This document shows positions 1 through 63,566 of a stretch of 64,000 nt of DNA, piece by piece (positions within the stretch are counted from its first letter, which is position 1; every line of letters starts with the position of its first letter). The position numbers and the translations under genes were made by a program. The stretch spans positions 1,094,216 through 1,158,215 of the forward strand of contig CAVSWU010000003.1 in the NCBI GenBank assembly GCA_963731795.1. The letters run 5' to 3'. This DNA comes from an uncultured delta proteobacterium (GTDB lineage Bacteria; Myxococcota; Myxococcia; Myxococcales; Myxococcaceae). The notes under the pieces are model-generated. The model did no database searches, was not told the DNA's origin, and saw only the letters and a program-made list of their open reading frames with translations.

Positions 1-3000
1 CGGTGGCGTTGGCGGTCTGGCGCGCGGTCAGCTCCGAGGCTGGCAGGCGCACCATCTCCAGGGCCTCCCAGCCCTCACCCTCGGCCAGCCGCTGCAGCAG
101 CTCGCGGTAGGCCTGGAACATCGCGTCCACCAGGCCCGCGGGGAAGATCGCCACGAGCACGTCCCAGTGGAAGCGAAGCCCGCCGCGCGCCTCGCTGGCC
201 TGGTGATCGATCCAGACGTGGGGCGTCTCCAAGCGGGTGTGGACGGGGTGTCCCAGGAGCTGGGACTCGTCATTCGCCTGCGCATCCTCATACAGCGTGC
301 TGGCGAAGACGAAGGGCATGGCCGACGCGGCGCCCGTGCCCTGGGACAGGGCCAGCTCGCGGAGGACCTGGGTGCCGCTCACCTGGGTGTGCTCCAGATC
401 GCTCCACAGCCGCGCCTGCACCCGGCGAGCGCGCTGCGCGAAGGTGTCCCTCGGCCGGCAGTCCACCTCGAGCAGGAGGGTGGTGCTGAAGTTGCCGACC
501 ACCTCTCCGAGCCGCGGATGCAGGGGTGGCCGGTTCTGGTACAGGAGGTTGAGGGTGAAGTGGGGCGTCTGGCTCCACGCAGCCAGCACCTCAGCGTACG
601 CGGCCGCCAGCACGGCGGTGGGCGTGAGCCCCGCGCGCGTGCCGCGAGCCTTGAGGCGCTGCCATGCCTCCGCATCCACCTCGGCAGCCCACCGCTGGAA
701 GCCGCGCTCTCGCAGGGCCACCGGGGCGCTCACCTGCGGAAGCAGCGGAGCGGGTGGCAGCGTCGGCAGGCGGTCTCGCCAGTACGCCAGCGCCTTCTGG
801 TACCCCTCGTCCGCCTCGCGCGCGGCCTCCAGGTAGCGGACGTAATCCCGGTACGTCACCTCCAACGCCCCGAGGTCCGCGCCCGGATCCCGGTAGAACC
901 GCTCCAGGTCGCGGTTGATGACACGGAAGCTCTGAAGATCTCCCATCAGTAGCGGGAAGGCGAGGTGCAGCCGGTACCGCCGCTGATCGAGCCGGTGCCC
1001 CCGGAGCGTGAAGAGCGGCCAGGTATCCGGCCGCGGGTTGGCGCGAGACACGGCCGCTCGCGCCTCCTCGATGCGGCGCTCCACCTCGGCCTCGGGCAGC
1101 CCGCGCAGATCGACGACCTCCAGCTCGAACGCCGGGACCTTCGCGAGCACCTGCTGCTGTCCATCCGCGCGGACGATGCTCCGCAACGTGGCATGCCGCT
1201 CGATGACCCGCTGGAACGCGGCGTTGAAGCGCGCGACATCCAGGTCGAGCGTCTCGGCCTCGATGTAGCCCACGGCCGTCGCGCTGCTGCGCTCGAAGAG
1301 GCCCGTCTGCCCCAGCCAGTACGCCTGCTGCAGCTCCGTGAGCGCGAAGGGCTCTAGGCTGCGCTCGGGCTCGGGGATGAGCTGAACCCGCGTGGAACCC
1401 GAGCCCGCCGCTCCCCGCGCATGGGGCTGCTCCCGGGCGAGGAACTCGGCCTGCCGGGCGATGGTGGAGAGCTCGAACATGCGGGAGAGCGGCAGCTCGG
1501 TGCCAAACCGCTCTCGCAGGCGGATGATGAGCTTGACGGCCAGCAGCGAGTGTCCACCCAGCTCGAAGAAGTTGTCGTGGATGCCGACGCGCTTCACGCC
1601 GAGCAGCTCGGACCAGAGGGCCACCAGCGCGGTCTCGGTGTCGTTCCGAGGAGCCGCCACGAGCGCTGGGCGTTCCGCCTGAGCGCCCGGCTTGGGGAGC
1701 GCCCGGCGATCCGCCTTCCCGTTGGCGTTGAGAGGGAGCACCTCCAGCACCACCCACGTGGAGGGCACCATGTACTCGGGCAGCCGCTGGCGGAGGTACT
1801 CGCGGACCGCCTCTTCCGAGATGGCCGGGCCGGGCCGCGGGACGATGTAGCCCACCAGGTGCACGCTGCCCGAGGCATCCGGCGCCGCTGTCACCACCGC
1901 GTCGCGCAGCGCCTCGTGCCCGCGCAGGACGGATTCGATCTCACCCAGCTCGATGCGGATGCCGCGCACCTTCACCTGGTGGTCGGCGCGGCCCAGGAAC
2001 TCGATGTCACCGCTCGGCAGGTGGCGCGCCAGATCCCCGGTGCGGTACAGGCGCCCGGCGTCGTCCCCGGAGAACCGATCGCTCACGAAGGCGCTGGCGG
2101 TGCGCTGAGCGTCGTTGAGATAGCCCCGCCCCACGCCGACGCCGCCGACATACAGCTCGCCCACCACTCCCACGGGCACCGGCTCCATCCGGGAGTCGAG
2201 GACGTAGAGGCGCGCATTGGCGACGGGACGCCCGATGGGCAGGTGTGCCAGATCCTCGCGGGGCGGCGTGGTGATGGCGTAGTGCGCCACGTCATCCGAG
2301 CACTCGGAGCTGCCATAGGCGTTCAGCAGGGGAATGGCTGGGTAGAGCGCGAGCCACCGGCGGCAGAGGTCGGGCGGGAGCGCCTCGCCCGTGGGGACCA
2401 GCCAGCGCAGCGAAGGAAGGGCGGGCCGGGCCTGCCCTCGCGCCTCGGCATCATCCAGCATCAGGCGCATCACGGAGGGGACGATCTGCAGGACGGAGAT
2501 GCCATCCTCCGCCACCCGGTCGAGCAGGCGCCTTGAATCGCGCGCCACCGCGTCCTCCACCACGTCCACCTCGGCGCCCATGAGCAACGGCGCCAGGGTC
2601 TGCCAGATGCAAATGACGAAGGAAGGCGGAGCGGTCTGCGCCACCACGTCGCGTGCGGTGATGCCCAGATCCGTCGCCTTCGCGTAGAGGTGGTTGAGCA
2701 TGCCCCGGTGCTCGATCATTGCCCCCTTGGGCACCCCCGTGGACCCGGACGTGAAGACGACAAAGGCCAGGTTGCCGGGGGCCACACGCGCACGCTGCAC
2801 CCCGGTGCGAGCACGGATCGCGAGCAACTCCTCCACGCCCCAGAGCGCGGGACGCCCCTGCGCGGGCACCAGCGCCAGGGCCTGGGCGAGCGCGGCCCTC
2901 CGAGCCTGGGACACGAGGACACCCACGGCGCCCGCCTGCTCCAGGATCTGCGCCACGCGCTGGACGGGGTGGGAGGGCTCAATGAGCACGCACGCCCCAC

Positions 3001-4669
3001 CCGCCTCATGGACAGCCAGGATGGAGGCCAGGAAGTCGACCCCGCGATCCAGCGCGACGACGACGAGCGCCTCCGGCTTCACGCCCTGCCCCGCCAGCTG
3101 CGTGGCCAGGTGATCGACCCGCTCGGAGAGCTGCCGGTACGTCAGGCGCGCGCGGCCGGAGCGCACGGCGATGGCCTCGGGGGTGCTCGCGGCCTGCCGC
3201 CGGAAGAGCTCAGGCAGGCACAGCTCGAGAGGAAAGTCCTGGCGGCGGTCATTCCACTCCACCAGCAACCGGCGCCGCTCCGACTCGGGCAGCAGCGGCA
3301 GCTCCTTCACCGAGCGCGACGGATCCGCCAGGGCCGCGTCGAGCAGCAGGGCGAAGCCCCTGGCCATGTGGGCGATGGTCTCGGGCTCGAACAGGGCCGT
3401 GTCGTACTTGAGCTCGCAGTGGAGCCGGCCGTGGATCTCGGTCATCTCCAGGGAGAGGTCCATCAACCCCTCCTGCTGGCTCACCGGGATGGGCTCGAAG
3501 ATGAGCCCTCCGAGCTCCACCTCCACCGGCCGATCGGTGTGGAGGAAGAACGCCGACAGCTCCTCGCGAGGTGTCCGCTGGAGCATGATCATGGACTGGA
3601 AGATGGGCGAGCGGCTCGCGTCGCGCGTGGGGACGAGCCGCTCCACCATCATGGGGAAAGGGCACTCCTGGTGGGCCCGTGCATGCGTGACGGTGCGCCC
3701 GGCTGCCGCGACGAACTCCCGGAAGCTGGGCTCCCCGGCGAGGCGCGAGCGCAGCGGGAGCATGTTGATGAAGGAGCCCGCGATGCGGTCCAGCCCCTCG
3801 AGGCCCCGCCGCCCAGGCACCGGAGTGCCGACGATGACATCCTCCTGGCCCGTATAGCGGTGGAGCAGCACCTGATACGCGGCCAGGAGCACCGTCAGGA
3901 AGGTGGAGCCCTCCGCCTTGGCGAGCGCGCGGATGCGCTCGACCGTCTCCGCCCCCAGCGTGAAGGGATGCGAGCCGCCCTGGTACGACTGCACCGCGGG
4001 CCGCGAGTGGTCCAACGGCAGGTTCAGGACAGGCAGCTCGCCCGACAGCGCCTCCTTCCAGTAGCTCCAGAGCCGCTCCCCTTCAGGGCCCGCGAGCAGC
4101 TCCTCCTGCCACCGCACGTAGTCCCCGTACGTGAGCCTCAGCGGCGGCAGCTCCGCTGGCCTCCCCTCTCGCACGGCGCGGTAGAGCGTGCCCAGCTCCT
4201 CGAGCAGGACGTTCATCGTCGCCAGGTCCACGGCGATGTGGTGCAGCGTCAGGACGAAGACATGCTCTCGCGCCGAGCGCGTGAAGAGCTCCAACCGCCA
4301 CACGGGCTCGCGCTCGAGATCGAAGGGACGCCTGCCGAGCTCCTTCGCCCGCGCCTCCAGCTCACGATCGCTCTCGGAGGGCACCCTCCACTGGCGGATG
4401 TGGAAGTCCATCCGCTCGTGGACGAGCTGCATGGGCACGCCCTCGTGCACGGCGGACGTGGAGCGCAGCACCGGGTGACGCTCCGCCAGCTGGAGGAACG
4501 CCTCCCTGAGCGCGAGGAAGTCCACCTCGGACCTGACGCGCGCCGCCACGACGACGTTGTAGGCCGAGCTCTGGGGGGAGAGCTGCTGAACGAACCAGAT
4601 GGCCCGCTGCCCCTGCGACAGGGCCTGACGGCTGACAGGACGGGAGGAGACAGGCAGCGCGAGAGGCAT
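1..4669 (-). CDS. Non-ribosomal peptide synthetase, N-terminal part (C - A - PCP - Cy-like domain; gene continues past window start)
   Basis: Minus-strand frame open from ATG at 4669 (RBS AAGGAG) to position 1. Hand-translated motifs: C-domain HHIAVDLAT; A3 LAFVVFTSGSTGVPKGA (~2700-2750); A7/A8 YRTGDLARHLPSGDIEFLGRADHQVKVRGIRIELGEIE (~2040-2160); [17 protein letters not shown] (~1560-1600); downstream Cy-like FALTELQQAYWLGQ and PLLMGDLQS (~900-1400). Confidence 0.9.
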   Translation of the reverse strand, partial: MPLALPVSSRPVSRQALSQGQRAIWFVQQLSPQSSAYNVVVAARVRSEVDFLALREAFLQLAERHPVLRSTSAVHEGVPMQLVHERMDFHIRQWRVPSESDRELEARAKELGRRPFDLEREPVWRLELFTRSAREHVFVLTLHHIAVDLATMNVLLEELGTLYRAVREGRPAELPPLRLTYGDYVRWQEELLAGPEGERLWSYWKEALSGELPVLNLPLDHSRPAVQSYQGGSHPFTLGAETVERIRALAKAEGSTFLTVLLAAYQVLLHRYTGQEDVIVGTPVPGRRGLEGLDRIAGSFINMLPLRSRLAGEPSFREFVAAAGRTVTHARAHQECPFPMMVERLVPTRDASRSPIFQSMIMLQRTPREELSAFFLHTDRPVEVELGGLIFEPIPVSQQEGLMDLSLEMTEIHGRLHCELKYDTALFEPETIAHMARGFALLLDAALADPSRSVKELPLLPESERRRLLVEWNDRRQDFPLELCLPELFRRQAASTPEAIAVRSGRARLTYRQLSERVDHLATQLAGQGVKPEALVVVALDRGVDFLASILAVHEAGGACVLIEPSHPVQRVAQILEQAGAVGVLVSQARRAALAQALALVPAQGRPALWGVEELLAIRARTGVQRARVAPGNLAFVVFTSGSTGVPKGAMIEHRGMLNHLYAKATDLGITARDVVAQTAPPSFVICIWQTLAPLLMGAEVDVVEDAVARDSRRLLDRVAEDGISVLQIVPSVMRLMLDDAEARGQARPALPSLRWLVPTGEALPPDLCRRWLALYPAIPLLNAYGSSECSDDVAHYAITTPPREDLAHLPIGRPVANARLYVLDSRMEPVPVGVVGELYVGGVGVGRGYLNDAQRTASAFVSDRFSGDDAGRLYRTGDLARHLPSGDIEFLGRADHQVKVRGIRIELGEIESVLRGHEALRDAVVTAAPDASGSVHLVGYIVPRPGPAISEEAVREYLRQRLPEYMVPSTWVVLEVLPLNANGKADRRALPKPGAQAERPALVAAPRNDTETALVALWSELLGVKRVGIHDNFFELGGHSLLAVKLIIRLRERFGTELPLSRMFELSTIARQAEFLAREQPHARGAAGSGSTRVQLIPEPERSLEPFALTELQQAYWLGQTGLFERSSATAVGYIEAETLDLDVARFNAAFQRVIERHATLRSIVRADGQQQVLAKVPAFELEVVDLRGLPEAEVERRIEEARAAVSRANPRPDTWPLFTLRGHRLDQRRYRLHLAFPLLMGDLQSFRVINRDLERFYRDPGADLGALEVTYRDYVRYLEAAREADEGYQKALAYWRDRLPTLPPAPLLPQVSAPVALRERGFQRWAAEVDAEAWQRLKARGTRAGLTPTAVLAAAYAEVLAAWSQTPHFTLNLLYQNRPPLHPRLGEVVGNFSTTLLLEVDCRPRDTFAQRARRVQARLWSDLEHTQVSGTQVLRELALSQGTGAASAMPFVFASTLYEDAQANDESQLLGHPVHTRLETPHVWIDHQASEARGGLRFHWDVLVAIFPAGLVDAMFQAYRELLQRLAEGEGWEALEMVRLPASELTARQTANAT

Positions 4670-4764
4670 GCCCACTCCTTAAAAGCTGCAAAAGCCTAAA
4701 TCCAAACCTTACCGTTCATAGTGGCCATTCACGCGGTTCATACCGGGACGAGGAGGGCGCCCCT

Positions 4765-13453: not shown

Positions 13454-15154
13454 TCAGCCCCGCCGTGAGCGCTCCACGCGGATGGCGTACTCCTCGATCT
13501 TCTTGTCCAGCGTGGGGCGGCTGATCCCCAGCCGCTGCGCCGCGCGGATCTTCCGCCCGCCCGCCGCCTGGAGCGCCTCGACGATGGCCTCCCGCTCCAG
13601 GCGCTCCACCATCTGCTGCAGGCTGCTCGGCTTCGAGGCCACGGAGCCCTCCTGGATCTCCGGGGGCAACCGCAGCGCGTGCACCTCGCCGCCCGCATAC
13701 ACGCGCCCGAGCCGCTCGCTCACCAGCCTCAGCTCGCGGATGTTCTGCGGCCACGCGTAGTCCTCCAGCAGGCGCCGCGCCCCCGGGCTGAGCACGGGCG
13801 GAGGCTTCCGGGCTTCACCCGCGCTCCGCTGAGCGAAGTGCTCGAACAGCGCGAGCACGTCCGCTCGGCGCTCGCGCAGCGGAGGCACTTCGATCTCCAC
13901 CCCGGCCAGCGCCATCGCCAGGGCCGTGTCCAGCCCCCCCTGAGTAGCCAGAAGCTGCGCGGGCGCGCTCGCCGTGGCGATGAGGCGCAGATCCACCGGC
14001 TCCTCGCCGCCCTGCCTCGCCGGAGCCACCTTGCGCGTGAGCAGCCGCGTCAGCCGCTCGACGACCGCGCCCGAGAGCCCCTCCACATGCTGGAGCAACA
14101 ACGTGCCCCCATCCGCGCGCAGGAGCGCGGAAGAGCGCGGCGGCAACCCGGGAGCGCTGGCTTCGCCGAAGAGCTGCTCCTCCACGGTTGGCTGCCGGCA
14201 ATCCACCGCCACCAGCGGCCCGAGCCCTCGCGGGGAATGCGCGTGGATGAGCCGGGCCAGCAGGCTCTTCCCAGTCCCCGGCTCGCCGGAGATGACGACG
14301 GGCTCGGCTCTGGCGGCCGCGCGTCGGGCCTGCTCCACCATCCGGCGGAACGGGCGGGACGTGCCCACCAGCTTCAACCGGGCCTGCTCCTCCTCCGCGC
14401 GGGAGCGCATGGCGGCATACGCCTCGCCGCCCATGCGCCCGAGTGCCGCCACCACCTGGATCTCCAACGTGGTGAAGCGCGGCTCGTTGCACCCCACGTA
14501 CAACAACCCGAAGGCCATGCCCCCCGAGGCCACCAGCGGAGCGCACAACTCGGAGCCCGAGGAGGCCACCTCCTTCAGCTCCAGCGCCATGCTCGCCATG
14601 GTGCGGGGGACCTCCACGGAGGATGCGCCGGACACCACCGCGGTGAGCAGCCCCTCCGGCCCGCCCAGCAGCGCCGCGGCCCGGTCCGCGTTGAGCGCAT
14701 GGAGGGCCTCCTCCACCAACCGCCGCAGCACCATGGCCTGGCTGGTAGCCCCCAGCAGCGCCACGCCCGCCGAGAACAGCGCCGCCTCGGGCCCCACGTG
14801 CGGCAGCACCTCCGCGATGGGCACGTGGCTGGCATCGAGCGGCTCCGTCTCCGCCAGGGCCGCATGGCTGAGCGGCTCGTAGATGGCGATGGTCTCCCCT
14901 ACCTGGACGCGATCGCCCGGCAGCAGGCGCGCCTCGCCCGCCACTCGCTCGCCATTGATGAGCGTCCCGTTGCGCGAGTCGAGATCGATGAGCCACGCCT
15001 GCCCCTCGCGCACGAAGAGGCGCGCGTGCCGCCGCGACGCCTTGTCGTCGTTGATCTGGATCTCGCACGAGGGGCTGCGGCCGATCGTGACCTCCGTGAC
15101 CACCTCGCAACGGCGGCCGGCGGAGGGACCGGTGAGCAGCAACAGGGCTGGCAT
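13454..15154 (-). CDS. FHA-GAF-AAA+ NtrC-family transcriptional activator (sigma-54 EBP-like, GAFTGA motif absent)
   Basis: N-terminal FHA (TIGRSPSCEIQINDDKASRRHARLF...GTLINGERV), central GAF-like region, AAA+ core (VVISGEPGTGKSLLARLIH, GGTLLL), C-terminal Fis-type HTH (RKIRAAQRLGISRPTLDKKI). The GAFTGA loop reads EASAPGLPPRS. Confidence 0.9.
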   Translation of the reverse strand: MPALLLLTGPSAGRRCEVVTEVTIGRSPSCEIQINDDKASRRHARLFVREGQAWLIDLDSRNGTLINGERVAGEARLLPGDRVQVGETIAIYEPLSHAALAETEPLDASHVPIAEVLPHVGPEAALFSAGVALLGATSQAMVLRRLVEEALHALNADRAAALLGGPEGLLTAVVSGASSVEVPRTMASMALELKEVASSGSELCAPLVASGGMAFGLLYVGCNEPRFTTLEIQVVAALGRMGGEAYAAMRSRAEEEQARLKLVGTSRPFRRMVEQARRAAARAEPVVISGEPGTGKSLLARLIHAHSPRGLGPLVAVDCRQPTVEEQLFGEASAPGLPPRSSALLRADGGTLLLQHVEGLSGAVVERLTRLLTRKVAPARQGGEEPVDLRLIATASAPAQLLATQGGLDTALAMALAGVEIEVPPLRERRADVLALFEHFAQRSAGEARKPPPVLSPGARRLLEDYAWPQNIRELRLVSERLGRVYAGGEVHALRLPPEIQEGSVASKPSSLQQMVERLEREAIVEALQAAGGRKIRAAQRLGISRPTLDKKIEEYAIRVERSRRG

Positions 15155-52859: not shown

Positions 52860-53018
52860 GCTTCGCTGCGCTCGATCCAGGAAGAACCTCACAGTGCCGG
52901 CATTATATGGAGAGCGCCTCGGTTGATTCAGGTTTTCGCGCCCCTCCTTTCGTGAGGAGAGGAGAACACGGTGGAAGATTCCACCCTTAGCCCCCCGCCA
53001 GAGCCTCTTGCCCCAACG

Positions 53019-54124
53019 ATGAGCCCCTGGCCATGGCCGCCATCTGCGGGGGCCTCGGGCTGGTGGCTCTTCCTGACACTCGGCTTCATCACCCAGATCC
53101 TCAACGCGGCCTTCGGCATCTGGTTCACGGAGATCTTCATCTTCCTCGCCGTGCCCTGGGTGGTGCTGCGCGCGGCTCGCTATGAGCCCCTGGGGTACAC
53201 CGGCGCGCAGTTCCCAGGGCTGGCGCCCGCGGCGCTCGGCTTCGGACTGGGGGTGGCCAACTTCTTCGCGCTCGTGGTGCCCATCCAGTACGCCGCGCAG
53301 TCGGTGGCCCCCCAGTGGCTGCGGGATATGTTCGATGGGAGCCGCATCTTCGAGGGCCAGAGCCCGCTGGAGCTGACCCTCATGCTCGCCGGCGTCTCCG
53401 TGGCCGCGCCCGTCTGTGAGGAGTTCTTCTTCCGCGGCGTCTTCCAGAAGGGCCTGCTGGCATCCTCGCTCTCGCGGCCTGCCGCCGTGGTGGTCACCGC
53501 CGTGGTGTTCAGCGCGTTCCACATGGATCCGGTGGGCTTCCTGGCGCGGGTGGAGCTGGGGGTGCTGTTCGGCGCGCTGAGGCTCTACACGGGCTCGCTG
53601 TGGCCGAGCATCCTCGCGCACTCGGCCAATAACGTGGTGTCCTCGTTCCTGTTCCTCTCGTCGCGGCAGATGGGGCCCGAGAGCGCGGACGAGCGTCCCC
53701 CGCTGAAAATCGTCCTCATGCTGATCGCTCGCGGGCATGGTGGCCATGGGGATTCTGCTGGTGCTCGCGCGTATGTTCCCTGCGCTGTGGGGGCCGAGGC
53801 AGGAGCCGCCCACCTACACCCAGCCCTCCCCTTCCCTCGCGCGGCTGCTGCTGCCGTGGGTGCTGGGGGCAACACTCTCCGTGGGGGCCCTGGTGCTCGT
53901 GGATGCCCGAGGCATCCGGCTGAGCTGGATCGACCTCCAGTACCACCTGCCCAAGCTGCCCCAGGACGCTCCGGAGGGGCTCAAGACGGAGCGCGAGAGC
54001 CTACTTCGGCTGAGGCGAGGAGGCTCGCAGCGGACGGGCACCCGTGGAGGCCTACAAAGAGGAGCGCACCCGGCAGGCCCAGGAGCGCCCGTCACAGCCA
54101 GAGCCCACTCCAGAGAAGCCATGA
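53019..54124 (+). CDS. CPBP-family (CAAX/Abi) intramembrane metalloprotease, two frameshifts (~53740, ~54010)
   Basis: Motifs EEFFFRG, FSAFH, HSANN in ORF 52971..54179; C-terminal membrane or coiled part continues in ORF 53737..54495. Confidence 0.7.
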
Positions 54125-54150
54125 GGCCCCGAGCAGCTCCCAGCCCGGGG

Positions 54151-54366
54151 CTACAAGAACCGGTAGGAGGCCACGTTGAAGACGGGCCCCACCATGTGAA
54201 TCGTCACCGCGTCGTTGTCCACCTTGCCTTCGACCTCGACGCGCTGGCCGTCCTTCTTGATCTTCCGATCCCCGCCGGCGAGCTGGTAGGTGCGGCCGTC
54301 ATCGCCCTCGAGCACCCACACGCCGGTCTCGATGTCGCGGAAGACGATGCGCCCGCTCAGCTTCAT
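54151..54366 (-). CDS. Small hypothetical protein (71 aa, beta-rich)
   Basis: MKLSGRIVFRDIETGVWVLEGDDGRTYQL...; start overlaps the stop of the upstream membrane-protein gene. Confidence 0.5.
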   Translation of the reverse strand: MKLSGRIVFRDIETGVWVLEGDDGRTYQLAGGDRKIKKDGQRVEVEGKVDNDAVTIHMVGPVFNVASYRFL

Positions 54367-54761
54367 GCCGTCTCCTTCTTGAGCATCGCGCGAGCGATGA
54401 AGACGCAGATCAGCGTGTTCACCACGAGCCACGGAATCGCCAGGAAGGTGAAGGGCATGTACGCCAGCCCCGGCGCCTTGGACCAGGCCGCGTAGCCCAG
54501 GAAGCCCGCGAAGCCGAGCGCCAGGCCACCGATGGCCGGCCGCAGCCCGCGGAACTTGATGGCGATGAACGACAGCACCGCCGGGATGATCGCGCTGTAG
54601 AAGAGCGGGTTGGCCAGCTTGCCGCGGCCGAAGATGATGCGCTGCCAGTCGGGGATCGGCAGCGACACCGCGTTCACCACGTCCCCGGCCGTGCCGGAGG
54701 CCCCGCCGAAGATCGAGCGAGCGAAGAACACGCCCACCGTGGCCAGCACCAGCGGCACCAC
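54363..54761 (-). CDS. Hypothetical integral membrane protein
   Basis: 132 aa with 4 predicted TM segments. Confidence 0.55.
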   Translation of the reverse strand: MVPLVLATVGVFFARSIFGGASGTAGDVVNAVSLPIPDWQRIIFGRGKLANPLFYSAIIPAVLSFIAIKFRGLRPAIGGLALGFAGFLGYAAWSKAPGLAYMPFTFLAIPWLVVNTLICVFIARAMLKKETA

Positions 54762-54818
54762 GAAGCTCGGGTTGAAGAGGAGGTTGAGGTAGCCCGGCCG
54801 CTGCGCGACGGCCCAGCG

Positions 54819-56190
54819 TCAGCAGCACCAGCGCCAGCAGCGCCAGCGCCCACCAGAGCGAGCGGCCACTGCCCGCCCAGCGCCACCGAGCGCCTCCAGC
54901 GAGCCCTCCGCGTTGAGCAGGCCGTGACCGTACTCCTCGCTCCAGGCCTGGCCGTTCACGCGCCTGGCGCCCTCGAACAGCGCCTTCTCCACCTCGTCCG
55001 GGCCGCTGGCGCCCGCCGCGTACAGGAGCGCCGCCACCGCCGCCACGTGCGGAGTGGCCATGCTGGTGCCCTGGTACGAGGCGTAGACGGAGCGCGACGG
55101 GTCCTTCGGATCGATCGTGTTCTGGATGATGCCGTTCTGGTCGCCCTTGCGCTTGTCGCCGCCCGGCGCCGCGATGTCCAGCTCCTTGCCGTAGGACGAG
55201 TACGGAGCGCGAGTGCCCATCCGGCCCCACGGCGGCCACGGCCACCGCGCCCGGGTAGGCCGCGGGGAACTCCACGCGGCCGCGCGCCGGCGTTGCCCGC
55301 CGCCGCCACCACCGTCACGCCCTTCTTGCGCGCGTACTCCACCGCGTCGGCCATGACCTTCGAGTACCCGCCACCGCCCAGCGACATGTTGATCACCTTG
55401 GCGCCCTTGTCCGCCGCGAAGCGGATGGCGTCCGCGATGTCCGCGGAGGTGCCGCTGCCGAAGTGGTTGAGCACCTTCACCGGCATCAGCGTCGCCTCGA
55501 AGGCCACGCCCGCCACGCCCTCGCCGTTGTTCGTCGCCTGGGCGATGGTGCCCGCCACGTGCGTGCCGTGGCCGTGGTCGTCGTTGGCGTGCTCGTCGTC
55601 GTTCACGAAGTCGTAGCCCTCGACGAACTTCACGCCCTTCAGGTCCGGCACCTGCTTGAAGTCGCTCGTAGTCCTCGTAGGCGATGCCGGTGTCGAGCAC
55701 CGCCACCACCACGCCCTTGCCCCGGCTGCGCGTCCCAGGCCTTGGGCATGTCGATCATCTTCAGGTTCCACTGCTTGCCGTAGTCCGGATCGTTCGGCGT
55801 GAAGCTGGAGTGGTACTCCAGCAGCGGCTCGGCGGACTCGACGGCCGGGTTCTGGCGGATGCGCTCCAGCGCACTCTCCACGTCATCCACGCCCACCGCC
55901 ACGGTGAGGCCGTCGTCGTTGCCCTCGATCGAGTTGAACTCGAGGTCCACGCCCCACTCGGCCTCCCAGGCGTCGAACTGCTCCTTGGTGGTGCCGTCCT
56001 TGAAGTCCACCACGATGCTGCCGGGCACCACCTCCGCCTCGGAGAGATCCAACGTCGGGGCCGACTGACTCGCCTCGGGGGAGGCCGGCGAGGCCGCCTC
56101 ATTGCTCTTGGAAGAAGAGCAGGCCGCGGTTACCACCACCGCGAGGGCTACCACCGCGTTCGCCAGGATCCTTCGCATCATCTGGGGCAC
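54819..56190 (-). pseudogene. Subtilisin-like S8 serine peptidase with N-terminal lipoprotein signal and I9 propeptide, >=3 frameshifts
   Basis: ORF 55639..56190: signal VVTAACSS plus inhibitor-I9-like propeptide. Catalytic D (VAVLDTGI), H ([11 protein letters not shown]), S ([15 protein letters not shown]) in other frames (54956..55771, 54819..55712). 3' end uncertain. Confidence 0.7.
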
Positions 56191-56343
56191 TCCTCAGAAA
56201 CGAGGCATTCCTTCAACAGACCCGTACGAACGAACGGCGAAACGATTGGGTCTGTCTTGCAGTCTGTTCGACCGAACGGTCAGCCGGCAAGCGCCGGAGT
56301 ATTGAGAAACCTTAAGAAGTCTGAACGTTTGCACGCGCATCGG

Positions 56344-56979
56344 TCACTCGCCCGACAGCCGCTTCAGCCACGCGGCCACGAACCTCCCGACCTGGGGGAG
56401 ATTCCTGTGGAAATTCGGGCCCGCGTCATCCACCACCTCCAGCTCGCCCCGCGCTGCTTCCCCCACCGCCGCCGCCAGGGCTGCCCGGGGCAGGCGCTTG
56501 TCCTCCTCGCCCACCACCACGAGCAGGGAGCGCTCCAGCCGCGACAGCTCCGCCAGCGTCACGTCCGCGGGCGCCACCAGACACAGCCCGCCCACCGCCG
56601 GATGCCGGGCCTGCAGCGCCAGCGCCACCTGGGCGCTGCCATGGAGCGAGGCCACCGCGAGGCGGGGGCTCTGGGCGTTCTCCAGCAGCACGCGCATGGC
56701 GGCCTCGGCGTCCTGCACAAGCGCCTCCCCCGTCCCGCGAGCGCCCTGGCTTCCGCCGACGCCCCGGTAGTTGAACCGAAGCGTGGGAAAGCCGGCGGTG
56801 GCCGCGGCCCACGTCAACTCCGCCGCAATGACGTGGTCCATCCCCCCGCCCTCCTCGGGCCGAGGCGAGAGCACGAGCAGGGGCGGCCTCTTCACGCCCC
56901 GGTGCGCCGTGCCTTCCATCACCTCACGGCCGACAGGAATGAGCGTCGGCCGCTCGAGGAACTGCCCTTTCGTGACCAT
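56344..56979 (-). CDS. Alpha/beta hydrolase (dienelactone-hydrolase-like)
   Basis: 211 aa from MVTKGQFLERP...; nucleophile elbow ASLHGSA. Confidence 0.7.
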   Translation of the reverse strand: MVTKGQFLERPTLIPVGREVMEGTAHRGVKRPPLLVLSPRPEEGGGMDHVIAAELTWAAATAGFPTLRFNYRGVGGSQGARGTGEALVQDAEAAMRVLLENAQSPRLAVASLHGSAQVALALQARHPAVGGLCLVAPADVTLAELSRLERSLLVVVGEEDKRLPRAALAAAVGEAARGELEVVDDAGPNFHRNLPQVGRFVAAWLKRLSGE

Positions 56980-57219
56980 TCGCGGTGACCTTAATCCTCG
57001 CGAGCCCCTGCGGCCTGCCTCATCGGCGGGAACTTCCGCTCCCGTGCAACCCTTCAGACTTCGGACAGTGAGTCTCTTTGGACTCAGAGAACATCCGTTC
57101 AGAAAAACCGCCCATCCTGATCGCGAAATGATCCAAGAATGATCCGGAGGCACGGGCCAGATTCCATGTCTGCTAGGCTGCCGGGCCTCGCTTTCCCCCT
57201 CCCGGAGATCCAGCCCCCT

Positions 57220-57642
57220 ATGATCCGAGAAGAAGCGCAGCGCCTGGCGCAAGCGTTCCTGGCAGCCACCGGCAACCCCGACAGCCCCGGCCTCAACCCG
57301 CAGGGCTTTGGCGGCGTCGCCATCGAGGGCGCGCAACTCTACTTCGAGTGGCGCGACAAGGAGCAGGCGCTGGAGTGCAGCGCCCTCGTGTACAAGTTCC
57401 AAGATGCTCCCAAGCCCGGCATCATCGAGGGCTTCCAGCAAGAAGAGTGGTCCGGCGCGGACACCGGCGGCGGCACCGTGGACTACGAGCCAGAGAACAA
57501 GTCCCTCTTCCTGAGCCGCACCTATACCGAGGCGCCTCCGCAGTCGGCGTTCGTCGAGGACATGAAGCGGCTGATGGCGGCCAGCCTCGTGTGGGGCGAT
57601 GAGGTGCTGGACCGCGTGGCCTCGCGCGTCTTCAAGAGATAG
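57220..57642 (+). CDS. CesT/YbjN-like type-III-chaperone-fold protein, paralog A (candidate chaperone or immunity)
   Basis: ~140 aa acidic protein; helix-beta-beta-helix pattern (AQRLAQAFL...VAIEGAQLYFEW...ALECSALVYKF...SLFLSRTY...MKRLMAASLVW) typical of class-I T3SS chaperone/YbjN fold. About 60% identical to paralog B. Confidence 0.6.
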   Translation: MIREEAQRLAQAFLAATGNPDSPGLNPQGFGGVAIEGAQLYFEWRDKEQALECSALVYKFQDAPKPGIIEGFQQEEWSGADTGGGTVDYEPENKSLFLSRTYTEAPPQSAFVEDMKRLMAASLVWGDEVLDRVASRVFKR

Positions 57643-57744
57643 GCCACTCGACGCACCGCGTTATCCCTGGACGGCAACTTTTCCGTCTCAGGTACGACAA
57701 TTCCTCCCAAAGGCAGCACTCCCTCACGAATTCACGGAGTCCCC

Positions 57745-58708
57745 ATGAGCCTCATTGATCGCAGCCGGAACCTGGTGAACCAGGTGCGCACCGGCGTCGA
57801 GAACACCGCCCACAAGGTCGAGAACGCCGTCAGCAACACCGTCCACAAGGTGGAGGACGTAGCGGCCCAGACGGGCCAGAAGATCCACAACGTGGTGGAC
57901 GGCTTCGAGACCAAGGCCGTCAACGGCGCCAAGGCCGTGCAGGGCTTCTTCGGCGGCGGCAACCAGCCGGACAAGGTGTACGACGGGCAGTTCGTGGGCG
58001 CTGGCGGCAAGACGTACCCGCCCGGCACGCTCGCTGAGCGACGTCCCCGGCGTCACCCCGAAGAACAACCCGAACCCCTCCGAGACGATCGTCTACGTCA
58101 ACGGCATCAACACCACGAAGGACGGCCAGGCCAGCAGCCTCCAGTCGATCGCGGACACGACGGGCGCCAAGGTGGTGGGCATCCACAACGCCACCGAGGG
58201 CATGGGCGCGGACCTGGCCCAGTGCGTGAAGGACAAGCTGGACAAGGGCACCAACCCGGCCGTGGATACGCTGGCGGACACGCTCTACAAGGAGCTCAAG
58301 GCGGGCCACTCGGTGCACGTGATGGCGCACAGCCAGGGCGGCCTGATCACCAGCCGCGCGCTCGACCACGTCTACAACCGGCTGCGCATCGAAGATGGGA
58401 TGTCCAAGGCCGATGCGCAGAAGACCATGAGCAAGCTGAACGTGGAGACGTTCGGCGCGGCGGCCGCGCACTACCCGGACGGCCCCAACTACGTGCACTA
58501 CGTCAACAAGAGCGACCTGGTCCCCGACGCCTTCGGCCTGGGCCCGGCCAAGTGGAACCCCCTCACCGACGGCGGCAAGGGCGCCGTGGTGCACCGCTTC
58601 AACGAGTTCCACGCCAACCCCATCGCCTCGCACGGCTTCGAGTCCGTGTACCTGCAGCACCGCGTGCCGTTCGATCAGGCGCGGGCCGGTAACTTCGGCG
58701 ACAAGTAA
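57745..58708 (+). CDS. Candidate secreted effector/toxin with C-terminal lipase-like alpha/beta-hydrolase domain (GHSQG), one frameshift near 58030
   Basis: No signal peptide. C-terminal domain has VYVNGINTT (oxyanion region), VHVMAHSQGG (nucleophile elbow), KSDLVPD (Asp) and ASHGF (His), resembling Bacillus LipA-type lipases. N-part in ORF 57745.., C-part in ORF 58172..58708. Confidence 0.6.
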
Positions 58709-58797
58709 CAATGGCGACCGCACCTCGAAGTGGCCTGGCGGGCCTCCTGATGTCGTGGGTGGCCGGCCTGGCGCCTGCGTCCCCGGCGGGCGCGCCC

Positions 58798-59238
58798 ATG
58801 ACGCGGGAGGGCGCGCAGCGGCTGGTGCAGTCCTTCGTCCGGCCCCACGGCTCATTGCAGAGCCAGGGGCTGAACCAGGAGGGCTTCGGCGGCCTCATCA
58901 TGGGCGGGGCGCAGCTCTACTTCGAGTGGCACGAGGACACGAAGGCGCTGGAGTGCAGCGCCCTCGTGTACAAGTTCCACGATCCGCCCAAGCCCGGCGT
59001 GCTCGAGACCTTCCAGGCTGAGGAGAAGGAAGGCACGGACACCGGCGGCGGCACCGTGGCCTACGAGCCCGAGAACCGCGGGCTGTACCTCAGCCGGACC
59101 TATACGCAGGTGCCGGATGAGCGCGCCTTCGCCAAGGACATGAAGCGGCTGATGAAGGCCAGCCTCAAGTGGAGTGACGAGGTGCTGGACCGCGTGGCCT
59201 CGCGCGTGTTCCACCCCGAGGAGCTGGAGCAGCGCTGA
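58798..59238 (+). CDS. CesT/YbjN-like type-III-chaperone-fold protein, paralog B
   Basis: MTREGAQRLVQSF...LIMGGAQLYFEWHEDTKALECSALVYKFHDPPKPGVLE...GLYLSRTY...MKRLMKASLKW; paralog of 57220..57642. Confidence 0.6.
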   Translation: MTREGAQRLVQSFVRPHGSLQSQGLNQEGFGGLIMGGAQLYFEWHEDTKALECSALVYKFHDPPKPGVLETFQAEEKEGTDTGGGTVAYEPENRGLYLSRTYTQVPDERAFAKDMKRLMKASLKWSDEVLDRVASRVFHPEELEQR

Positions 59239-59295
59239 GCCTCGAGGAGCGGGTGGAGTCGACTCCCCCGCTCCACCGAGGCCGCGGGCCCAGAC

Positions 59296-60493
59296 TCACA
59301 CCGAGGCGAGCACGTAGAACTTGAGGTACTTCCCCTCGGGGAACTGCAGGCGGACCGGGTGATCCGGCGGCTGGTAGCGCTCCTCCACCAGCGCGAGATC
59401 CACGCCGGCCTTGAAGCTCGCCTCGCGCACCGCGCCCATGAAGTCATTCGGGCTGACGCGCGCCGAGCACGAGGCCGTGGCCAGCAGCCCTCCCGGCCGC
59501 AGCAGCGCGAGCGCCTGCCGGTTGAGCGAGGCATACCCGTCGATCGCCGCCTGCACCGCGCGCTGGCTCTTCGCGAAGGCGGGCGGGTCCAGGATGATCA
59601 GATCGAACGTGCGGCCCTCGTCCTTGAAGGACTGGATGATCTTGAAGACGTCCGCGGCGAGGAAGTCGTGCTTCTCCGCCGGCAGCCCGTTGCGCGTGAA
59701 GTTCTCCCGGGCCAGCGCGATGGCGTCCGGATCCAGGTCCACCGAGAAGACGCTCTTGGCCCCGCCCAGCGCCGCGTTCACCGAGAAGCCGCCGCTGAAG
59801 CAGAAGCAGTTGAGCACGTCCCGGTCCTTCGCCAGCCGGCGGATGAGGAAGCGGTTCTCGCGCTGGTCCAGGAAGAAGCCCGTCTTCTGCCCCCGCCACG
59901 CGTCCACGAGGAAGGTGGCGCCCCGCTCGCGGATGGGGATGAGCTCCGGCGCGGGAGGCCCGTGGAGCATCCGCCCGGAGCCGCGCCCGTCGTCGTCCTC
60001 CACGTCGTCGCGAGCCACCTCGTCCCGGCCGAGGATGCCCTTCAGCTCGGGAATCGCCGCCTTGAGCGCCTCGACGATGAGGTGGCGGTAGGGCGTGAGG
60101 CCCGCCGAGTACAGCTTGAGCACCACGTAGCCCGCGTAGAGATCCGCAACCACGCCCGGCAGCCCGTCGCCCTCGCCGTGGAGGAGGCGGAAGCTGTCCG
60201 TGTCGGTGAGATCGATGAGGGCCTCGCCGCTCGGCGAGCGCCTGCTTCACCCGCCGCGCGACGAAGTCCGCGTCGATGTTCTCCCGCGGATCACGCGTGA
60301 GCACGCGCACCGCGATGGCCGAGTGCGGATCGAAGTAGCCGCGCGCGACGAACTTCCCGTTCTCGGTGAGGTCCACCACGCTGCCGGCGGGGATCTTCGG
60401 CACCTGCTCCAGCGCCTTGCGGAACACCCACGGGTGGCCTGCGCGCAGGTGGCGGCCCAGTCCGCGGGCCAGCTCAAGCTTGACGACGTTCAC
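59296..60493 (-). CDS. rlmI: 23S rRNA (cytosine-C5) methyltransferase RlmI-like (PUA + class I SAM MTase), one frameshift near 60235
   Basis: N-terminal PUA-like VNVVKLELARGLGRHLRAGHPWVF (GTG start 60493, RBS GGAG). MTase motifs VLNCFCFSGGFS, DLIILDPPAF in ORF 59296..60153. Confidence 0.7.
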
Positions 60494-60497
60494 GAAG

Positions 60498-61310
60498 TCA
60501 CTCCTGAAGAGCCGGGCGGCGGCCTCGCTGGGCGAGGATGGCGCGGGCCAGCTCCTCGAAGCCCCGCCCCTCGGCGGCCCGGGTGATGAAGGCCGGCGGC
60601 GCGTCGATGCGGTCCAGCACGCCGCGCACGTTGGCCACCCCCACACTGAGGGCAAAGGCCTGGAACATCGGGGCGTCGTTGAAAGAATCCCCGGCGTAGA
60701 CGGAGCGGCCGTCCTCGGGCGTCAGCCGCTCGCCCCACGCCACCCGGGCGAAGCGCCGCGCCATGGACAGCTTGTCGAAGCGCCCGATCCAGCAGTTGAC
60801 GTGCACCGAGGAGCGCACCGCCGTCACGCCCCGCGCGCGCAGCAGCGACTCGATGCGGCTGGCCGCCGCGTCCCCGAGCCGGGCCTCCTCGTTGTAGTCG
60901 ATGGCCAGATCCACTTCGGTGTACGCGCTGTCCGAGGACAGCCGGGCGCCCGGCACCTTCTTCAGCACCCGGAGCACCTCCGAGCGCAGGCGCTTCCGGT
61001 TCGCCACTCGCTCGGCGGGCGCCTCCGCGTACACCTTGCGCAGCACGCCCTGAGCGCCTCGGACGAAGAAGAGCCCTCCGTTCTCCACGATGACGCCATC
61101 CACCGGAAGCGTGCGTGCCCAGGCCTCGCCCCACCCCGCCGGGCGGCCGCTGACGAGCACCACCTTCAGCCCCGCCGCGGACAGGCTCTCAAGCGCACGA
61201 ATCGTCTGGCTGCGCAGCTTGTGGCCCGTGGTGAGCGTGCCGTCCACGTCGGTGAAGACGCTCCTCCACCTGGGACAGCTCCGCCTCCCGGAGAGGCCGG
61301 GGGAGGGTTG
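60498..61310 (-). CDS. HAD-IIB family hydrolase (mannosyl-3-phosphoglycerate phosphatase-like), N-terminus frameshifted
   Basis: Motif I FTDVDGTLTTG (needs a frame change to reach an ATG), then VLVSGRP, GDSFNDAPMF. Stop at 60498 abuts the rlmI start. Confidence 0.65.
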   Translation of the reverse strand, partial: QPSPGLSGRRSCPRWRSVFTDVDGTLTTGHKLRSQTIRALESLSAAGLKVVLVSGRPAGWGEAWARTLPVDGVIVENGGLFFVRGAQGVLRKVYAEAPAERVANRKRLRSEVLRVLKKVPGARLSSDSAYTEVDLAIDYNEEARLGDAAASRIESLLRARGVTAVRSSVHVNCWIGRFDKLSMARRFARVAWGERLTPEDGRSVYAGDSFNDAPMFQAFALSVGVANVRGVLDRIDAPPAFITRAAEGRGFEELARAILAQRGRRPALQE

Positions 61311-61339
61311 CTAGCATGCTGACTCTCGCCGACTTGGAA

Positions 61340-62518
61340 GAAGGAGACTGCCTCACGTCACACCCAGGTTCGCCAGCAGGCTCTGGCAGGTTCTCCAGCG
61401 TGGCGCGCAGCTCCGGGCCGGTGAGGCTGGCCAGCGGCGCCTTGCGCGCCTTGCGCAGGAAGGCATCCATGTTCGCCTCGCGCCCATAGAGGGACTGACC
61501 GATGGCGGCCGCCTCGGCCAGCAGGCGCGCGGCGTTGGCCGGATCCGAGTCCAGCAGTCCCATGGCCCGCTCCAGGCGCACGCCGCAGGCGGCCCACACC
61601 TCGCGGTCGTTGATGATGAGCACCTGCCGCTGGTTCACCGCGGACAGCGAGCGCACCAGGCCATCCAGCTCCTCCAGCACGGTGAGCAGCTCGTCCTTCG
61701 GCGGGTTGGGCAGAGGAAGCCAGGGGCCCCACCTTCCCGCGGAGCTCGATGATGTGCCGCTTGTCCTGCGCGCGCAGCGCCCCGGTAGGCGGCCGTCCGG
61801 CCGAAGGCGTCCAGCTCGTTCTGGAGCTGCTGGGCGTTCGTCTGGATGTCCCCGGGCGCGGCGTCGCGCACCTTCGCCAGACGCGCCGAGAGGATGCGCC
61901 CCAGATCGGCCACGATGGCCCGCACCGTCATCGAGGCCTTCACCTCCGCCTCGTAGCCCGGCACCACTTCCTTCCGGGACACGTCCGCGAAGGCGCTGAT
62001 GGACGAGTAGACGAGGTTGCTGATCTGCTCTCGGAAGGCGGACCGGAAGCGCTGGATCTCCGCCAGCAGCGTCCACCGGTCGGACACCACGGAGGGGTTG
62101 CGCATGGCCTCGCCCAGCTGGGTGATCTGCTGGGCCATCTGGATCATCGCCTCATGCAGCAAGGCCGCCGCGTCCCTCGCCCGCCCCTCGTGCGTCGCGC
62201 GCGTCGCCGCGTCCGCGCTGGCTCCCGGCGGCTGCGCCGGGAACTCCTCGCGGATGACGTGAGCAGCGCGTTGACGTCCATCACCGTGTCGCGGATGACA
62301 GGGGCCATCTCCTCCCACAAGGACAGGTCCGCGCCCGACTCGGTGGAGTCGGTCTCGTACTTCACCAGGTCCATGTCACTGAGCCGCGCGATGGCCTGCG
62401 CGGCGGCGGCGTACACCTTCCTCAGGCGCCCGGCGAATGCCGGATCCGGGAGCGTCTGGAGGATCTGCTCGAGCCTCGAAGACAGGGGGCAGGAGTCGTT
62501 TCTGCGGACACGAGGCAC
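61340..62518 (-). pseudogene. Hypothetical protein gene with >=2 frameshifts
   Basis: Coherent segments across ORFs 62144..62518, 61635..62318 and 61189..62076; no family assigned. Confidence 0.45.
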
Positions 62519-62617
62519 ACTCTAGACCGATCTGACGCCGCTGGGCCCTCGACTTCTCACCCGGTTGGTTCTACCCATCATGAGCGCGTCGCGTTCCACC
62601 GTTGGGAGTACCGCACC

Positions 62618-63566
62618 ATGAAGATACAGGTCTGTCTCCTGGAGGGAGGTCGAACCCTCGTCGGCGGCGAGGAGCTGCTCGACAAGCCTGGCCCCAAGTG
62701 GATCGACGTGCTCGCGCCCAATGAGGAGGGGCTCAGCAGGCTCGGCGAGCGCTACTCCCTGCACCGGTTGGCCGTCGAGGACTGCCTCCACCTGGATCAG
62801 CGCCCCAAGATGGAGGAGTACCCCGGACCACCAGTTCATCGTCCTCCAGGGCTTCACCGCCGGGCAGGACATCTGCGACCTGACCCTACAAGAGCATCAC
62901 TTCTTCCTCGGGCCCGGACTGGCTGATCAGCGTCCACGAGCTCCCCTTCGACGCGCACGATGAGGTGCGCCGTCGGATAGAGGCCGATCCCGAGGGGACG
63001 CTCGGGCGGGGGGTGGACTTCATCCTCTACCTGCTGGCGGACGTGTTGATCGACCGGCAGTTCCCGATTCTGGACACCTTCAGCGACGAGCTCGAGGACC
63101 TGGAGGCGGCCATCTTCGAGCAGGCGGAGAAGCGACCACCTGCAGCGCATCTTCGAGCTGAAGCGCATGCTGATGCCGTTCCGTCGCGTGCTCTCGCCCC
63201 AGCGGGATGTGGTGGGGCTGTTTGCCCGGCGAGGCATCCCCCACGTCCAGGATCGAAACCACCCTGTACTTCCGGGATGTGTACGATCACCTCGTCCGGC
63301 TGTACGAGCAGATCGACTCCGGGCGCGACATCCTGGGCAACGTGATGGACGGCTACCTGTCCATGGTGGCCAACAAGACGAACGACATCACCAAGCAGCT
63401 CACCATCTTCGCCACGATCTTCCTGCCGCTGTCCTTCATCGTGGGGTTCTTCGGACAGAACTTCCCGCAGATCCAAGGCCCGGGCGAGTACTACGCCATG
63501 TGGGTGACGATCGCGGTGATCCCTATCGCGCTCATCTTCTGGTTCAGGCACAAGCGGTGGTTCTGA
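62618..63566 (+). pseudogene. corA: Magnesium/cobalt transporter CorA gene, >=4 frameshifts
   Basis: CorA N-domain (WIDVLAPNEEGLSRLGERYSLHRLAVEDCLHLDQRPKMEEY) and C-terminal TM region with YGMNF-like GQNF (FLPLSFIVGFFGQNFPQI) spread over ORFs 62618, 62721, 62965, 63167/63207. Confidence 0.75.

Follow-up and report, generated by a model that had tools for sequence, protein, structure and literature searches.

What is the function of a locus in which a putative hydrolase gene is enclosed by two small, paralogous, acidic genes? The question is raised by three co-oriented genes lying on the + strand at 57.2-59.3 kb of a 64,000-nucleotide stretch (the window) of contig CAVSWU010000003.1, from an uncultured member of the Myxococcaceae. 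An earlier note on this DNA had proposed that the hydrolase is an effector or toxin and its neighbours its chaperones or immunity proteins. Our analysis leads us to consider it somewhat probable that the cassette is a chaperone-effector module serving a system for type III secretion (T3SS) and that, in myxobacteria, the enzyme is probably cargo of the system called T3SS*. The chaperone-effector-chaperone interpretation thus emerged as the best one, with independent support from acidobacterial pairs embedded in T3SS clusters. The T3SS* (MXAN_2434-2464) is needle-less, accumulates together with the Kil/Tad pilus where prey is contacted, and is indispensable for prey lysis (PMC10433427, PMC10849154, PMC12075869); its effectors were stated to be unknown in reports from 2023 to 2025 (PMC10433427, PMC12075869).

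Organization of the cassette

The GC content of the window is 65-72% and its closest relatives are Hyalangium and other Myxococcaceae. All elements of the three-gene arrangement described in the earlier note were present in the sequence, and they are distributed as follows:

57220..57642, + strand: small protein A, 140 aa, 15.5 kDa, isoelectric point (pI) 4.57; CesT-fold, putative class I type III secretion (T3S) chaperone
57745..58708, + strand: alpha/beta-hydrolase gene, 320 aa after removing the extra base at 58029; orthologue of MXAN_2037
57745..57966, + strand: N-terminal ~74 residues of the hydrolase, variable, low-confidence amphipathic helix
57967..58708, + strand: catalytic domain of the hydrolase, with Ser196 (58331-58333), Asp257 (58514-58516) and His296 (58631-58633)
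58029, + strand: extra G that shifts the frame, placed by a DNA alignment with loci L002, L003 and L083; most likely an indel from sequencing or assembly
58711..59238, + strand: small protein B, 175 aa, paralogous to A, extended by 29 aa at the N-terminus and bearing an HPEELE tail
59246..59274, no strand: near-perfect 29-nt palindrome (GGAGCGGGTGGAGTC/GACTCCCCCGCTCC) between the convergent ends of B and a methyltransferase gene

A longer version of A, starting at 57139, had been assumed before; since its homologues are all 139-140 aa long and begin at an internal Met of that version, the start was moved to the ATG at 57220. The start codon of B lies 2 nt past the stop codon of the hydrolase gene (TAA-CA-ATG), a spacing that makes translational coupling of these two genes likely. 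The 29-aa extension of B (58711-58797), with the sequence MATAPRSGLAGLL(M/R)SWV..LAPA, is conserved across genera; as the internal Met that follows is Leu in Pyxidicoccus and M. xanthus, the upstream ATG was taken as the start of B and the extension as translated. Its interpretation as a signal peptide was rejected because it is not sufficiently hydrophobic and, in orthologues, contains a central Arg. No hydrophobic segment of the signal-peptide or membrane type was found in A, the hydrolase or B, which bears out the absence of a signal peptide already noticed for the hydrolase.

The palindrome at 59246-59274 might be a bidirectional terminator without a T-tail, closing the cassette. It was not detected by the scan for T-tail terminators, which, together with that for sigma-70 promoters, returned nothing, as expected at such a GC content.

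The cassette is not a product of chance, since the order A-hydrolase-B recurs in Hyalangium, Myxococcus and related genomes. A small gene beside the hydrolase gene, as A-hydrolase-B, hydrolase-B or hydrolase-A-B, was found in many genomes from two phyla.

The small proteins have the fold of type III secretion chaperones

A and B are indeed paralogues, with 66% identity over 139 residues (E 7e-69) where about 60% had been estimated. In a neighbour-joining tree A, B and a third clade, 'A2', are separate within the myxobacteria and the acidobacterial homologues fall outside them, implying that the duplication that gave rise to A and B is old and that both copies were retained. Both are small acidic proteins (the core of B has a pI of 5.4). 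The AlphaFold2 model of A, computed with 61 homologues, had a predicted local distance difference test (pLDDT) score of 95.9 and the order alpha-beta-beta-beta-alpha-beta-beta-alpha, in agreement with the fold of class I T3S chaperones of the CesT/SycE/SicP type. SigE, YscB, SycN, SpcU, SycH, InvB and SycT appeared among its lower-ranked matches.

The earlier note had suggested either such chaperones or YbjN proteins as relatives, and the fold that it anticipated is the one predicted for A. Genuine T3S chaperones scored above the YbjN/DUF2170 proteins (Escherichia coli YbjN, Erwinia AmyR, Tll0839 and DR_1245), and the Pfam models of CesT and its relatives and of YbjN (PF10722) were matched by none of the 61 members of the small-protein family at E values up to 1. 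NCBIfam gave no match for the small proteins and neither did a profile search against the sequences of the PDB, while the Pfam, NCBIfam and PADLOC scans of the three cassette proteins yielded sub-threshold matches only. Several NCBI records of the small proteins bear the automatic name "type III secretion system chaperone".

The middle protein is a predicted serine hydrolase with a variable N-terminus

The open reading frame (ORF) of the hydrolase runs from 57745 to 58708 and passes from one frame into the next near 58030, where the need for a frame correction had been recognized. Aligning the DNA with that of three Hyalangium orthologues located the cause exactly, as one surplus G at 58029 (GGCAC[G]CTCGCTG), whose deletion gives a 320-aa ORF reading PPGTSLSDVPGVTP, as in the orthologues. 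When the fused protein was used as a query 693 homologues were retrieved, and the full-length ones, of ~320 aa, covered 99-100% of it; therefore, the reading in two frames is correct.

The motifs quoted in the earlier note for the hydrolase, as well as those for the small proteins, were all located in the translations: VYVNGINTT at 58091-58117, VHVMAHSQGG at 58313-58342, KSDLVPD at 58508-58528 and ASHGF at 58625-58639. Ser in AHSQGG, Asp in (K/R)xD(L/P)VP and His in (A/S)H did not vary across 61 aligned homologues; they correspond to Ser196, Asp257 and His296 in the corrected numbering, so that the complete Ser-Asp-His arrangement reported before is upheld. The AlphaFold2 model (overall pLDDT 75.5, mostly above 85 from about residue 80) positions the Ser between a strand (189-194) and a helix (196-215), forming a nucleophile elbow, the Asp after strand 247-253 and the His after strand 280-284. 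This is the canonical layout of the alpha/beta hydrolases, and on this model we regard the middle protein as a predicted serine alpha/beta hydrolase of generic fold.

Regarding its description as "lipase-like", the alpha/beta hydrolase part stood, whereas the identity as a lipase did not: the Pfam matches were all sub-threshold (DUF900, 18.2 bits with a cut-off of 20.5; DUF676, 15.5 bits with a cut-off of 20.3; Palm_thioest), and Foldseek against the PDB gave only weak, generic hydrolase matches. A profile search against PDB sequences retrieved five marginal and irrelevant matches (E >=0.02), and there was no Pfam match to a Tle family. One orthologue is automatically named "putative lipase" at NCBI and some are labelled DUF676 in UniProt. 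The name lipase is thus plausible but unproven.

Residues 1-73 were modelled as a low-confidence helix (pLDDT <50). The number of repeats in this region varies among homologues, and its hydrophobic moment, with periodicities of 3.6 and 11 residues, indicates that it acts as one long amphipathic helix. A Phasin match (E 0.0047) was rejected as a domain assignment, as it fell below threshold. We propose that the region probably comprises a secretion signal and a chaperone-binding or membrane-docking segment.

The same features sustain the main rival explanation, namely that the enzyme is not secreted but works in the cytoplasm or on lipid surfaces, accompanied by YbjN-like proteins; its N-terminus would anchor it on membranes or developmental lipid bodies and its small neighbours would regulate or stabilise it. 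A long amphipathic helix, the weak resemblance to Phasin and the DUF676 labels of some orthologues are in line with it. On the other hand, the Phasin and DUF676 matches are both below the Pfam thresholds, and the resemblance of the partners to YbjN is contradicted by the scores of the genuine T3S chaperones and by the lack of any family member matching the YbjN model.

Homologous pairs lie in type III secretion operons of Acidobacteriota

Independent evidence comes from another phylum. The genome scan added three Pyrinomonadaceae (Acidobacteriota) genomes and the metagenome scan nine contigs. Over residues ~74-316, the Pyrinomonadaceae hydrolase shows 63-67% identity to the window protein, a very high value for two phyla. 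Its N-terminal ~75-90 residues, with a beginning rich in Ser, Ile, Thr and Asn, are unrelated to the myxobacterial ones, and the hydrolase gene is followed by a single small homologue, ~50% identical.

In five of these loci (L077, L078, L084, L085 and L093) the hydrolase-small gene pair lies directly downstream of sctQ-fliO-sctR-sctS-sctT. In L085 and L093, whose contigs reach farther upstream, the region before this block contains sctN, a gene with an FGE-sulfatase domain, a TPR/PEGA gene and a FliK/SctP-like gene, with sctL also present in L093. In L060 and L086, the pair and this sct operon are oriented convergently. The acidobacterial SctR passes the NCBIfam cut-offs for SctR and fails that for FliP. 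A related cluster, L094, encodes SctU, an FHA/YscD-type SctD, SctV, SctO, SctL, a SctJ of 285 aa, a lytic transglycosylase and a protein weakly matching needle proteins, a content indicating a non-flagellar system.

A constant enzyme, a lineage-specific N-terminus and a CesT-fold partner at the end of a T3SS operon are the classical signature of an effector and its chaperone. Adaptation of the N-terminus to whichever secretion system or chaperone is present locally would be expected to leave this pattern, an N-terminus unrelated between the phyla beside an enzyme that is kept. The proposal of a non-secreted hydrolase leaves unexplained the copies embedded in acidobacterial T3SS operons, which occur in two different arrangements, and YbjN proteins, unlike members of this small-protein family, are not typically paired with an enzyme or embedded in such operons.

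Further observations were made on these clusters. It appears that a T3SS of non-flagellar type, possessing FliO, SctO, an FHA-type SctD and a short SctJ, is widespread in Pyrinomonadaceae/Blastocatellia (L060, L077, L078, L093, L094), and small TPR (LcrH-like) genes are also found in its neighbourhoods. Two other genes might encode additional cargo: one at 15515-17950 of L085, whose 811-aa product matches the hydrolase domain in its C-terminal 230 residues (41% identity), and one of the Exo_endo_phos family at 2338-3675 of L093, lying between sctN and the remaining genes of the cluster. SctT fell into more than 100 distinct clusters, most of them automatically annotated as flagellar FliR. No relevant paper emerged from a literature search that covered T3SS in Acidobacteria, Blastocatellia and Pyrinomonadaceae.

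The cassette in myxobacteria

The cassette belongs to a conserved Myxococcaceae orthologue set, with 60-91% identity across genera, and is not polymorphic. In M. xanthus DK1622 the hydrolase is MXAN_2037 and the trio (MXAN_2036-2038) is located among metabolic genes. The trio of Hyalangium rubrum has the same flanks as that of the window, with Rce1-like, DUF5818, S8 protease and Hydrolase_4 genes on one side and methyltransferase and HAD genes on the other; the neighbourhoods differ between genera, as seen when the window and H. rubrum are compared with M. xanthus. Hydrolase-B is the arrangement found in Pyxidicoccus, Archangium and Cystobacter, and other loci have hydrolase-A-B'.

Several results weigh against a secreted hydrolase, and against T3SS* as its machine in particular. 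Many myxobacterial paralogues of the hydrolase have no adjacent small gene, with one to three stand-alone copies in many genomes, and the flanks of the cassette are housekeeping genes. No gene of a T3SS export apparatus was found in the 64-kb window or within 4 kb on either side of any of ~80 myxobacterial loci, and MXAN_2037 is ~400 locus-tag numbers away from the T3SS* cluster. A comparison through SctT did not single out the Pyrinomonadaceae T3SS as the closest relative of T3SS*: the 120 matches listed were close relatives of the query and, except for one record labelled Actinomycetota, the named ones were from Pyrinomonadaceae/Blastocatellia, and the nearest named representatives at 50% identity belonged to other Acidobacteriota or to Eisenbacteria. 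Experimental or expression evidence was not found either, as nothing was returned for MXAN_2036, MXAN_2037 and MXAN_2038 by literature searches or by the supplementary material of a predation transcriptome study. The housekeeping surroundings, the distance from secretion genes and the stand-alone paralogues also speak for a non-secreted enzyme. Taking these together with the acidobacterial copies and the fold of the small proteins, we judge that explanation unlikely, albeit the strongest of the alternatives to a chaperone-effector module.

The gene order is also reminiscent of effector-immunity cassettes, and a second alternative, already considered in the earlier note, is a toxin-immunity cassette in which a type VI secretion system (T6SS) lipase of the Tle kind, or a polymorphic toxin, is accompanied by duplicated immunity proteins. 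Many scattered T6SS and outer-membrane-exchange toxin loci exist in myxobacteria (PMC10433427), and Foldseek matched the hydrolase weakly to the T6SS lipase effector 9cys_A (E 6e-4, template modelling score 0.26). Contrary to this idea, the small proteins have the T3S chaperone fold and carry neither a signal peptide nor a lipobox. The immunity proteins (Tli) against lipases acting in the periplasm are themselves periplasmic. Genes for VgrG, PAAR, Hcp, T6SS adaptors or outer-membrane exchange were absent from the flanks of the cassette, and no Tle family was matched. Moreover, the catalytic domain is constant (63-91% across genera and phyla) and the N-terminus variable or replaced, which is the reverse of a polymorphic toxin. 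The immunity alternative was consequently abandoned in view of the missing export signal, the conserved orthologue set, the reversed variation and the absence of these secretion and exchange genes; we hold it to be very improbable.

Variations on the cassette were also observed. At the syntenic site of Archangium violaceum CP069338 (L082, 6001-7746) only an A-type gene was found, followed by a 266-aa DUF4261 gene replacing the hydrolase and B; the hydrolase-B pairs of Archangium are located elsewhere in the genomes of this genus. The hydrolase family is expanded in myxobacteria (L021, L027, L054, L057, L059, L066), with tandem copies (L027, 4001-6019), hydrolase-A-B' cassettes and several stand-alone paralogues per genome, suggesting that these enzymes form a small family of effectors with possibly shared chaperones. 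A Myxococcus-type A-hydrolase-B trio was found in L014 (BNCN01000011.1, 'Comamonas sp. KCTC 72670') and among proteins labelled Comamonas sp. JC664, with ~90% or more identity to M. xanthus (same 90% clusters); the Comamonas-labelled assembly is probably mislabelled or really that of a myxobacterium.

The frameshift and the quality of the assembly

The truncated 178-aa ORF (P0103) that results from the frameshift is found verbatim in public protein collections, so the shift belongs to the deposited assembly. This fact, and the observation that the site at 58029 is not a homopolymer, could favour a true pseudogene in this strain or a programmed +1 frameshift. Nevertheless, every orthologue is in frame at this site, the coding signal downstream of the shift is strong (GC content at third codon positions 0.91) with 78% identity to the orthologue, and at least five neighbouring genes within ~12 kb (52941-63560), including a conserved rRNA-methyltransferase-like gene, switch frame at least once in a translated comparison with their H. 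rubrum orthologues (L083):

52941-54091: CPBP/Rce1-like gene, frame change
54372-56181: S8 protease, frame change
59299-60493: RlmI-like methyltransferase, frame change near 60222
61387-62491: 391-aa protein, frame change
62618-63560: CorA, frame change

Indels thus appear to occur roughly once per kb in this region, pointing to pervasive errors. Given the orthologues in frame and the frameshifted neighbours, the shift at 58029 is most likely an artefact of sequencing or assembly and the organism itself probably carries an intact gene; the alternatives of a pseudogene and a programmed frameshift were rejected, being in our estimation quite improbable. The frame changes throughout the region also imply that a reading of the window based on ORFs is unreliable.

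A partial Pfam survey of the larger ORFs showed that the rest of the window (5-4675, 13454-15154 and 20928-41739) contains a nonribosomal peptide synthetase module (C-A-T), an FHA/GAF sigma-54 activator, rpoA, EF-Tu and EF-G, in addition to a DnaJ gene and regulators. rpoA and the genes for EF-Tu and EF-G lie in a run of small minus-strand ORFs resembling a ribosomal-protein cluster. These surroundings place the cassette in the core chromosome, with no obvious island.

Comparison with known systems

The closest parallels are the class I pairs SpcU-ExoU, whose effector is a phospholipase of Pseudomonas aeruginosa, and SicP-SptP. As in the cassette, a small acidic protein with the alpha-beta-beta-beta-alpha-beta-beta-alpha order is encoded beside the presumed partner enzyme, and ~75-100 disordered N-terminal residues precede the catalytic domain; the acidobacterial pair shares with them, in addition, its location inside a T3SS cluster. 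The cassette differs from these pairs in several respects. Its small proteins have no detectable sequence similarity to known chaperone families, its enzyme has the alpha/beta fold with Ser, Asp and His whereas ExoU is a patatin, and its effector gene is flanked by two paralogous chaperone genes. Its hosts are soil predators or Acidobacteria, and the presumed targets are other bacteria instead of the eukaryotic cells attacked through class I pairs. Unlike the systems used by those pairs, the T3SS*, the only T3SS described in myxobacteria, has neither needle nor secretin.

A heterodimeric chaperone is exemplified by SycN-YscB, which serves YopN in Yersinia. In contrast to A and B, its subunits are not close paralogues and their genes do not flank that of the substrate, and an A/B heterodimer is put forward here as a hypothesis.

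Yersinia enterocolitica exports its phospholipase YplA, likewise lipolytic by nature, through the flagellar T3SS and not through a classical host-injecting needle. YplA belongs to another enzyme family than the cassette hydrolase and has a different accessory protein, and the acidobacterial clusters look non-flagellar, as judged by SctD, the short SctJ and SctO. The Tle/Tli pairs of the T6SS resemble the cassette in that an antibacterial candidate of the alpha/beta-hydrolase type is accompanied by small adjacent genes; the cassette differs from them by its lack of T6SS linkage, of a periplasmic targeting signal and of a Tle signature, and by the fold of its small proteins.

Proposed mechanism and implications

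If the cassette is a chaperone-effector module, the effector would be an enzyme of the serine alpha/beta hydrolase kind, either an esterase or lipase-like, whose first ~75 residues would form a flexible amphipathic region holding the secretion signal and the segment for chaperone binding or membrane docking. A and B would act as class I chaperones, probably dimeric and possibly as an A/B heterodimer in the manner of SycN-YscB, keeping this region unfolded and masked in the cytoplasm of the producer cell and passing the hydrolase to the sorting platform of the T3SS. In the Myxococcaceae the machine would be the needle-less T3SS*, working with the Kil/Tad pilus. A bolder and more tentative proposal, which we would not yet favour, is that cassettes of the MXAN_2036-2038 type, possibly together with the stand-alone paralogues, constitute the lytic cargo of the T3SS*/Kil apparatus; an A/B heterodimer would then deliver a membrane-attacking hydrolase that disintegrates the prey, and the module would be shared with the non-flagellar T3SS of Pyrinomonadaceae through horizontal exchange.

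The earlier note had also stated that this combination of families was not described. No paper on MXAN_2036-2038 was indeed found, but the novelty is tempered by the automatic names given at NCBI to several of the small proteins, as T3SS chaperones, and to one hydrolase orthologue, as a putative lipase. A class I chaperone with its effector is a well known kind of system. New are the two families, which have no curated profiles or solved structures, the flanking of an effector by two ancient paralogous chaperones, the presence of such a cassette in bacteria whose T3SS has no needle and acts on bacterial prey, and its sharing with acidobacterial T3SS clusters for which our literature search found no description.

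In summary, curated profiles for both families would improve annotation across hundreds of genomes, and the cassette provides a specific and genetically tractable candidate for the cargo of T3SS*, turning the question of its effectors into a direct experiment. Furthermore, the Pyrinomonadaceae module points to an acidobacterial type III system and to the exchange of bacterial-warfare cargo across phyla; if the bolder proposal made above is true, type III secretion would also serve the Acidobacteria, abundant in soil, as a weapon against other microbes.

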